Shown: positions 36,627 through 37,382 of the stretch, piece after piece
Numbering within the stretch: position 1 is the stretch's first letter
Layout: the number at the start of each line of letters is the position of its first letter
Assembly: GCA_964016885.1 (NCBI GenBank)
Contig: OZ024746.1
Span: 17,298,001-17,362,000 of the forward strand
From: Eledone cirrhosa
Taxonomy: Eukaryota
Direction: 5' to 3'
Length of the DNA stretch: 64,000 nt
Notes under the pieces: generated by a model
What the model was told of the DNA's origin: nothing
The model's input: the letters and a program-made list of their open reading frames with translations, nothing else
Database searches by the model: none
Translations under genes and position numbers: made by a program

Positions 36627-36936
36627 TATATATATATATATAGTTGTAATAAAATGAAAACGAAATTTCATTTCTCACTCTTAGTACGGCACTTACTTAA
36701 ATGTAAGTATGTATGTATACGTACATACATATATGTATACAGACGTACAGTAGCATGCATATATATATATATACACATATACATACAGGTACACATACAT
36801 ATATGTACGTATCAGTTTAGCGGACGCTTATTATAGCGCCCGCTTTGTTCGTTTGTAAACAAACTGAACAGCCTGAATTTATGCCGCACGGTGTTAAGGC
36901 AACCACGTCACCTTTTTGTCCAACACTGACACAGGA

Positions 36937-36979
36937 ACGATGTACTAGTTTCAAGCTTGTTAGCTATCATCAGCACCGT
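36937..36979 (-). ncRNA. Minimal type I hammerhead ribozyme motif (family H3)
   Basis: Minus strand ACGGTG-CTGATGA-T-AGCT-aaca-AGCT-T-GAA-ACTAGT-A-CATCGT: 6-bp stem I, 4-bp stem II, palindromic stem III, GUA site. Confidence 0.8.
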
Positions 36980-37382
36980 ATACCCATCTGCCAGATAGTT
37001 GAACGTTCGAAAGTATATACTTTCCTTATGAAAATTAACGGCTGAGCAGCCTAATTTGCATATCGAGTGAGTTAATGCATGCTACTGTACGTCTGTATAC
37101 ATATATGTATGTACGTATACATACATACTTACATTTATATATATATATATATATGTACATATATGTATATATAAATGTTTATATATGTGTGTGTTTAAAT
37201 GCACACACACACGCACACACATATATATATATATATATATGTGTCAGCAGTTTACAACATGTTTTAACATGTTCCAATTTGAAACATTTTCTGATCTATC
37301 AAAGTTTTGGTTGACTTTTCCATTGATGTCCAGCACATGAACACATTCTTTCTTACAGTCTGAAATATCTATATTGTAGTAA

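Follow-up and report, generated by a model that had tools for sequence, protein, structure and literature searches.

The insertion at 36642..37137 and its surroundings

We analyzed a 64,000-nt stretch of Eledone cirrhosa DNA, referred to here as the window. At 36642..37137, the window carries an insertion that consists of two head-to-head arms of one retrozyme unit, both of whose 3' ends face outward into (TA)n. The retrozyme family to which this insertion belongs is called family A, its sister lineage is called B/C, and a further related monomer is called D. Unit coordinates (u) start at the first base after the predicted hammerhead cut (u1). Mapping of the locus on a natural 508-nt monomer of family A and comparison with other copies gave the following features (a dot marks features without a strand).

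36625..36641,., left (TA)n target flank, common to the insertion and the neighboring H1 element
36642..37137,., whole insertion: one retrozyme unit present as two head-to-head arms with outward 3' ends, in (TA)n (monomer mapping)
36642..37074, -, long arm, from u376 through the hammerhead to u349, 5'-truncated, with the tail at its end (monomer mapping)
36642..36697, -, 56-nt tail between two recurrent 3' ends, the putative two start sites of reverse transcription (end pattern as in the autonomous Penelope-like element described below)
36698..36760, -, native 63-nt segment (u232-293) whose mirror image is the short arm (monomer mapping)
36761..36810, -, internal TA/CA microsatellite-like stretch of copy-variable length, within a predicted long AU-rich hairpin (copy comparison and fold)
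36820..36843, -, GC-rich hairpin whose surroundings differ by subfamily (sequence and fold)
36918..37004, -, predicted extended helix I around the hammerhead (fold)
36937..36979, -, canonical type I hammerhead, H3 (core and covariation; the Rfam match is weak)
37014..37019, -, TATA-like word; the U6-like motif starts 43 nt before it (sequence)
37027..37037, -, imperfect inverted partner of the U6-like motif, forming a dyad or an RNA hairpin arm (sequence and fold)
37051..37062, -, 12-nt octamer-containing motif common to host U6 and U6atac upstream regions (sequence comparison)
37075..37137, +, short arm, an inverted 5'-truncated copy of u232-293 ending at the untailed 3' end (monomer mapping)
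37138..37154,., right (TA)n target flank

A sequence-only reading of this DNA had described the region as a cassette of CpG-rich, unique sequence bounded by perfect 63-bp inverted repeats. The segments at 36698-36760 and 37075-37137 are indeed exact reverse complements (63/63), and the match extends neither inward nor outward. The 314 nt between them contain 15 CpGs, with an observed/expected ratio of 1.24 relative to 0.35 window-wide, and at least 15 CpGs are found in only 0.24% of 275-nt windows. While the CpG richness of the interior thus stands, its uniqueness is true only inside the 64-kb window: a 31-nt core of family A had 10,718 exact matches in the 3.0-Gb genome, relative to none for a control.

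The repeats also do not bound the element. A start at 36698 was rejected because the insertion continues leftward to 36642, 56 nt beyond the left repeat (this end is uncertain by 1 to 2 nt owing to TA microhomology), and the 56-nt tail on the minus strand (36642..36697) had gone unmentioned in the sequence-only reading. The 63-bp inverted repeat is not a terminal repeat but the short arm, which is inverted, 5'-truncated, and of different length in different copies. Since the element reaches 36642 rather than 36698, it is separated from the H1 element only by the TA tract at 36625-36641 (~17 nt), not by the ~70 nt proposed earlier. The assignment of the insertion site to a TA tract agreed with the (TA)n flanks on both sides; in such (TA)n flanks, a target-site duplication is unreadable. 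The element that carries H3 had no blastn similarity to H1, consistent with the claim that the two are unrelated in sequence.

Elements of the H1 type are found at 36492-36632 and 22015-22183. They too are built as head-to-head pairs of arms; both strands carry a hammerhead core, and the 3' ends point outward in TA tracts. On the minus strand, the distance from H3 downstream to the H1 core is ~385 nt. Elsewhere in the window, an uninterrupted 747-amino-acid (aa) frame at 49718-51961 (-) encodes Rad54_N, SNF2, and helicase C domains and represents an intronless RAD54-like gene. It lies opposite a possible exon of another gene (48777-49379, +) that lacks a Pfam match, and it is possibly a retrogene inside an intron. 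A 24-bp minisatellite of ~155 copies occupies 31912-35830, and two LINE-like reverse transcriptase fragments, at 54938-55984 (-) and 13282-13650, are 89% alike over 369 nt.

The H3 hammerhead and its retrozyme family

The H3 hammerhead was present on the minus strand at 36937-36979 exactly as it had first been written. Its predicted cut falls after GUA, between 36943 and 36942. The motif combines a helix I of 6 bp followed by a bulge and two more pairs, a helix II of 4(+1) bp with a U-U at its base, and a 2-bp helix III capped by a palindromic loop of 2 nt. The region folded more stably than 200 of 200 shuffled sequences (z = -4.18), with helix III being absent from the minimum-energy fold. 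When five hammerhead sequences were aligned, the core was invariant, 97.3% of the cells were paired, and 6 of 15 pairs showed a compensatory change (slid controls scored far lower), although this covariation rests on few events because the five sequences represent two lineages. The hammerhead sample was dominated by 85 identical motifs. The closing mismatch of helix II is U-U in family A and C-A in D. At this locus, a C at 36920, where nearly all contigs compared have T, weakens one helix I pair. The Rfam match was weak (HH9, 18.6 bits relative to a gathering score of 52), and a scan of the whole window had no hammerhead among the 150 of 223 matches listed; the scan also returned miRNA matches that were microsatellite driven.

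H3 had been likened to the minimal hammerheads of Penelope-like elements (PLEs), with its palindromic stem III (ACUAGU) taken as a sign of cleavage as a dimer. The palindrome is present and compatible with dimer cleavage. According to PMC4209133, minimal hammerheads have a helix II of 7 to 8 bp, a helix I of 4 to 5 bp, and a helix III reduced to the core, and a weak palindromic helix III is linked to dimer cleavage. The 6-, 4(+1)-, and 2-bp helices of H3 fit the form that PMC4209133 names canonical metazoan type I, so the dimer idea is reasonable but the label "minimal" is not. H3 is a canonical metazoan type I hammerhead that is predicted to cut itself. Experimental precedents vary: cutting failed for 8 of the 9 predicted dimers from Xenopus (bioRxiv 10.64898/2026.07.22.740005; Li, Clavereau, Pollet 2026), and the axolotl HHR_Amex2, which like the family A hammerhead has a U-U at the base of helix II, cut weakly as a monomer and better as a dimer (PMC7229834; Cervera and de la Pena 2020).

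Searching the genome with the cassette showed that it is multicopy rather than single-copy. A DNA search of the animal's own genome with family A returned 49 matches at 98 to 100% identity when 40 of 1,123 candidates were scored. These near-identical copies, the 10,718 exact cores, and the lack of similarity to H1 bear out the proposal of a young, distinct hammerhead-bearing family. Natural monomers of family A, measured between successive cores, span 466 to 522 nt, are often arranged in tandem (arrays occur on several contigs), and differ chiefly in the internal TA stretch; contigs from four runs showed variants only. A pattern that excludes family A gave 5,950 further matches (control, 3). 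From this set, and from neighbors in loci L020 and L023, we took the related monomers B (461 nt), C (470 nt), and D (434 nt). Monomers A to D are all noncoding, with a longest ATG frame of 50 to 81 aa and a GC content of 35 to 37%, and the B/C lineage forms head-to-tail arrays of 30 or more units without coding sequence. In L020 and L023, lineage B retrozymes lie inside or right beside the TA stretches of family A copies; such nesting is common.

Family A thus consists of a short tandem unit of 466 to 522 nt, present as monomers to multimers, with a type I hammerhead in each unit (Rfam match weak), no protein frame, and a low GC content. It encodes no frame with reverse transcriptase (RT) and GIY-YIG domains, and it had no homology to the one autonomous PLE family compared. 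By these sequence features, we class family A as a metazoan non-LTR retrozyme, for which self-cleavage and a circular RNA are predicted.

A U6-like block upstream of the hammerhead

The 12-nt motif at 37051..37062 lies upstream of the hammerhead, on the hammerhead-sense strand, and is followed by a TATA-like word. In the host, the same motif is located at positions -77, -78, and -79 in three U6 promoter types and at -78 in one U6atac gene, with a TATA near -30 in U6/U6atac. Of the loci examined, 7 of 12 for U6 and 1 of 6 for U6atac have it upstream; these counts apply to a motif defined after sight of these sequences. At the U6 and U6atac loci without it, the upstream regions have been replaced or the locus is retrocopy-like. 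The motif was absent from the U1, U2, and RNase P upstream regions that we read. Between lineages, 10 of the 12 motif columns are conserved; the block as a whole (40/60 columns) is conserved like the ribozyme (26/37), relative to 44/124 columns in the body of the unit.

On the strength of these sequence comparisons, we lean toward the view that the U6-like block acts as a promoter, which would make it a candidate promoter for the retrozyme units. A plausible alternative, which concerns only the promoter, is that the block is an RNA hairpin or a protein-binding dyad of the circular RNA and that transcription occurs by read-through or by Pol II. Consistent with this alternative, the block folds into a hairpin of -6.3 to -8.9 kcal/mol in all four monomers but hardly in U6 promoters (-0.8 to -2.9 kcal/mol), and the TATA-like word follows the motif by 43 to 44 nt in the elements rather than by the 47 to 49 nt of U6/U6atac, so that the two are 3 to 6 nt closer than in the host genes and the U6 spacing is not reproduced. 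Moreover, the sense strand of the element contains T4 to T6 runs that could stop Pol III, and the predicted extended helix I begins upstream of the predicted transcription start. The 5' truncation points were likewise not clearly enriched at that start. If the start is placed at u466-467 by U6 spacing, three arms in a 51-locus sample are truncated there, and a genome-wide junction pattern gave 20 matches relative to 1 at a control position. Among the 20, true junctions accounted for 6, substitutions within intact units for 13, and a misoriented match for 1. Since a rough uniform expectation is ~10 per position, and the histogram of truncation points has artifact peaks from palindromes and the microsatellite, we do not claim an enrichment. 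On the other hand, a hairpin does not readily account for a motif that is conserved in its exact letters and lacks compensatory changes like those of the ribozyme helices, or for its recurrence at -77 to -79 in four U6/U6atac upstream regions with a TATA at about -30. Its absence from the upstream regions of U1, U2, and RNase P that we read, and its position upstream of the hammerhead and on the sense strand, also argue for a promoter.

Two kinds of small nuclear RNA promoter can be told apart in this genome, one in U6/U6atac and one in U1, U2, and RNase P. The latter three have another short word in common near -56 to -64, with a TATA-like word after it. In a tandem U6 array, the region upstream of the TATA has been replaced in 5 of 10 sampled units (L037, L038, and L040-L042). 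The U6atac copies L082 and L083, which lack the promoter and have 5' ends in or beside TA-rich repeats, are probably retrocopies.

Insertion anatomy, proposed mechanism, and known systems

Family A copies share a consistent anatomy. Their outer 3' ends fall in the vicinity of u290-293 or u349 or at the internal TA stretch. Among 40 loci taken in order along contig C1 (one of which, L138, was mapped spuriously), 25 of 45 clusters had outward-facing 3' ends and none had inward-facing ones. In a set of 51 position-ordered loci, 28 of 43 adjacent hammerhead pairs less than 1 kb apart were tandem, 15 were divergent, and none were convergent. When 3' ends were called in 51 family A loci by purpose-made patterns, all 21 loci with both ends recognized had one tailed and one untailed end; a further 26 loci gave one end and 4 gave none, and a few of the pairs (e.g., L137 and L148) may join two neighboring insertions. 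The same was true of 11 of 11 two-ended loci in lineage B/C (19 loci examined, of which 6 gave one end and 2 gave none). In predicted circular folds of monomers A and B, both recurrent 3' ends lie ~10 to 15 nt 3' of a hairpin, which is possibly, on these modeled structures, the recognition rule for the start sites. Pol III termination was dropped as a cause of the 3' ends, since family A lacks a T run at its untailed end.

An inverted 5'-truncated arm with outward 3' ends and a tail at only one end are what a PLE-type insertion leaves: a bias to (TA)n, a one-ended tail, and copies that are inverted and truncated are hallmarks of PLEs (PMC8557442; Craig et al. 2021). A GIY-YIG fragment beside one family A copy led us to an autonomous PLE family in the same genome (L190:1635-3986 and relatives). 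This young family has many intact 784-aa frames with an RT plus a GIY-YIG domain at the C terminus, a CX4CXXC motif before the nuclease, a (TA)n target, and a tail of ~39 nt, relative to 56 to 65 nt in the retrozymes; judged solely by the description in PMC8557442, it appears to be Neptune-like. Among 28 loci examined, all seven with two ends had one tailed and one untailed end, so the link to Penelope suggested by the sequence-only reading is upheld in the anatomy of the insertions. A pattern search found no canonical hammerhead core in the autonomous PLE, and the family A monomer had no homology to it (one PLE family was compared). The terminal AACT that the PLE has in common with family A was rejected as a partner signal, since B/C and D end differently.

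The perfect 63-bp inverted repeat and the TA flanks at this locus would also be expected of a MITE or DNA transposon with terminal inverted repeats, a TA target, and the hammerhead as cargo. We regard this explanation as extremely improbable. The inverted arm differs in length and position in nearly every copy and is missing from many, a single unit, circularly permuted or in tandem arrays, makes up the copies, and the element at this locus continues 56 nt past the left repeat. Because arm lengths vary freely, terminal inverted repeats are ruled out, and the absence of fixed terminal repeats across copies refutes a MITE origin for family A. The copies might instead be solo terminal repeats (pLTRs) of an autonomous PLE that has yet to be found, a reading to which the identical insertion anatomy and the homology of Xenopus retrozymes to pLTRs (bioRxiv 10.64898/2026.07.22.740005) lend some weight. 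We nevertheless consider it quite unlikely: the units form head-to-tail arrays that lack coding sequence, arrays in the sister lineage reach 30 units or more, and a motif scan detected PLE fragments in only 3 of 169 loci, all of which on reading were separate neighbors.

Another question is how the second arm arises. The arms of one insertion closely resemble each other. Over the subfamily-diagnostic segment u78-125, opposite arms differed by at most 1 in 13 of 17 loci and by at most 2.3 in all 17, relative to 77 of 990 pairs between loci that differed by at most 1 (median, 8). Opposite arms of lineage B/C differed by 0 to 2.8 in 8 of 8 cases relative to a median of 8. The comparison was less telling elsewhere (1/4 over u330-388, and 13/14 over u20-70 relative to 389/528 between loci), and another, noisier comparison gave 14/23 relative to 415/1035. 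These data indicate that, in most loci, both arms of an insertion share one template. In one scenario, the first cDNA folds back and is cut by the endonuclease, so that the inverted arm would not require a second priming on RNA. Fold-back fits the containment of the short arm in the long arm here and at many other loci, as well as some junctions that are near-perfect hairpins (L124). At L123 and L153, though, each arm carries sequence missing from its opposite arm, which excludes simple fold-back copying at these loci. Which of the two arms is longer also varies in family A, and both strands were extended in vitro by a PLE protein (PMC11167929; Frangieh et al. 2024). We therefore judge fold-back to be an unlikely general source of the inverted arm.

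In all likelihood, then, the insertion is a non-LTR retrozyme that was pasted into (TA)n by the RT/GIY-YIG protein of a PLE extending both strands. The protein studied in PMC11167929, a predicted dimer, cleaves AT-rich DNA and elongates both strands; the two internal RNA sites at which it starts mark the limits of the tail. Under the proposed mechanism, transcription would begin from the U6-like motif of an upstream unit, and the RNA would cleave itself, probably better as a dimer via the ACUAGU palindrome, and then circularize. The PLE protein would nick (TA)n DNA and start target-primed reverse transcription. A single RNA, multimeric or circular, would serve as template for priming from both nicked strands, each at its own start site, and two fixed start sites ~56 nt apart on one RNA would yield one tailed and one untailed end. 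The two cDNA arms would finally be joined at their truncation points. Together, the one-tailed/one-untailed rule and the shared template allow the in vitro findings of PMC11167929 to be extended to a model of how the second strand is primed, and this model can be tested. More tentatively, we may be looking at a lineage that captured a U6-type Pol III promoter, making every tandem copy self-transcribing, and that is served by a Penelope dimer copying one RNA from two sites at once. If so, the strict rule of one tail per insertion would show, at the genomic level, the way in which PLEs finish integrating, and the U6-like block would also serve as a Pol III promoter of compact size for this group of animals.

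Literature searches covering titles and abstract openings yielded no description of these families or of a cephalopod U6 promoter; the supplements of bioRxiv 10.64898/2026.07.22.740005, PMC7229834, and PMC8557442 may list related families. The closest relatives in kind are the metazoan non-LTR retrozymes of coral, mussel, and axolotl (PMC7229834), which have the same noncoding tandem units with one canonical type I hammerhead each, the same low GC content (35 to 37%), thousands of copies, and a branched fold with an accessible ribozyme. The family A unit exceeds the 150 to 450 bp given in PMC7229834 and falls inside the 51 to 972 bp of bioRxiv 10.64898/2026.07.22.740005. Expression and circles have been demonstrated for known metazoan retrozymes, whereas family A is known here from its sequence. 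Both papers propose mobilization by PLEs from co-occurrence or homology, and both state that the mobilizing enzyme and the transcription of animal retrozymes are open. The arm-and-tail footprint and the putative promoter are described here for family A and are not found in the parts of either paper available to us. Since retrozyme copies without homology to the PLE examined bear the complete PLE integration footprint, they provide direct anatomical support for mobilization by PLEs.

Endonuclease-bearing PLEs (PMC8557442 and PMC11167929) have the same inverted 5'-truncated copy and partial tandems, the same tail at one end, (TA)n or AT-rich targets, and a hammerhead. Family A differs from them in having no protein frame, a tail of 56 to 65 nt rather than 30 to 40 nt, a canonical rather than minimal hammerhead, and no homology to the PLE family examined. 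Newt satellite 2 and the schistosome SM-alpha repeats (cited in PMC2220036 and PMC6765202) are likewise tandem hammerhead repeats with a promoter in the unit, by which one unit transcribes the next. The promoter of newt satellite 2 is of the small nuclear RNA type and is read by Pol II, while that of the schistosome repeats is a Pol III promoter; the family A motif matches host U6/U6atac rather than U1/U2, and its promoter role is putative. Taken together, there are precedents for the class, for the way the copies are inserted, and for repeats of this kind that contain a promoter; family A is a new member of the known class of retrozymes.
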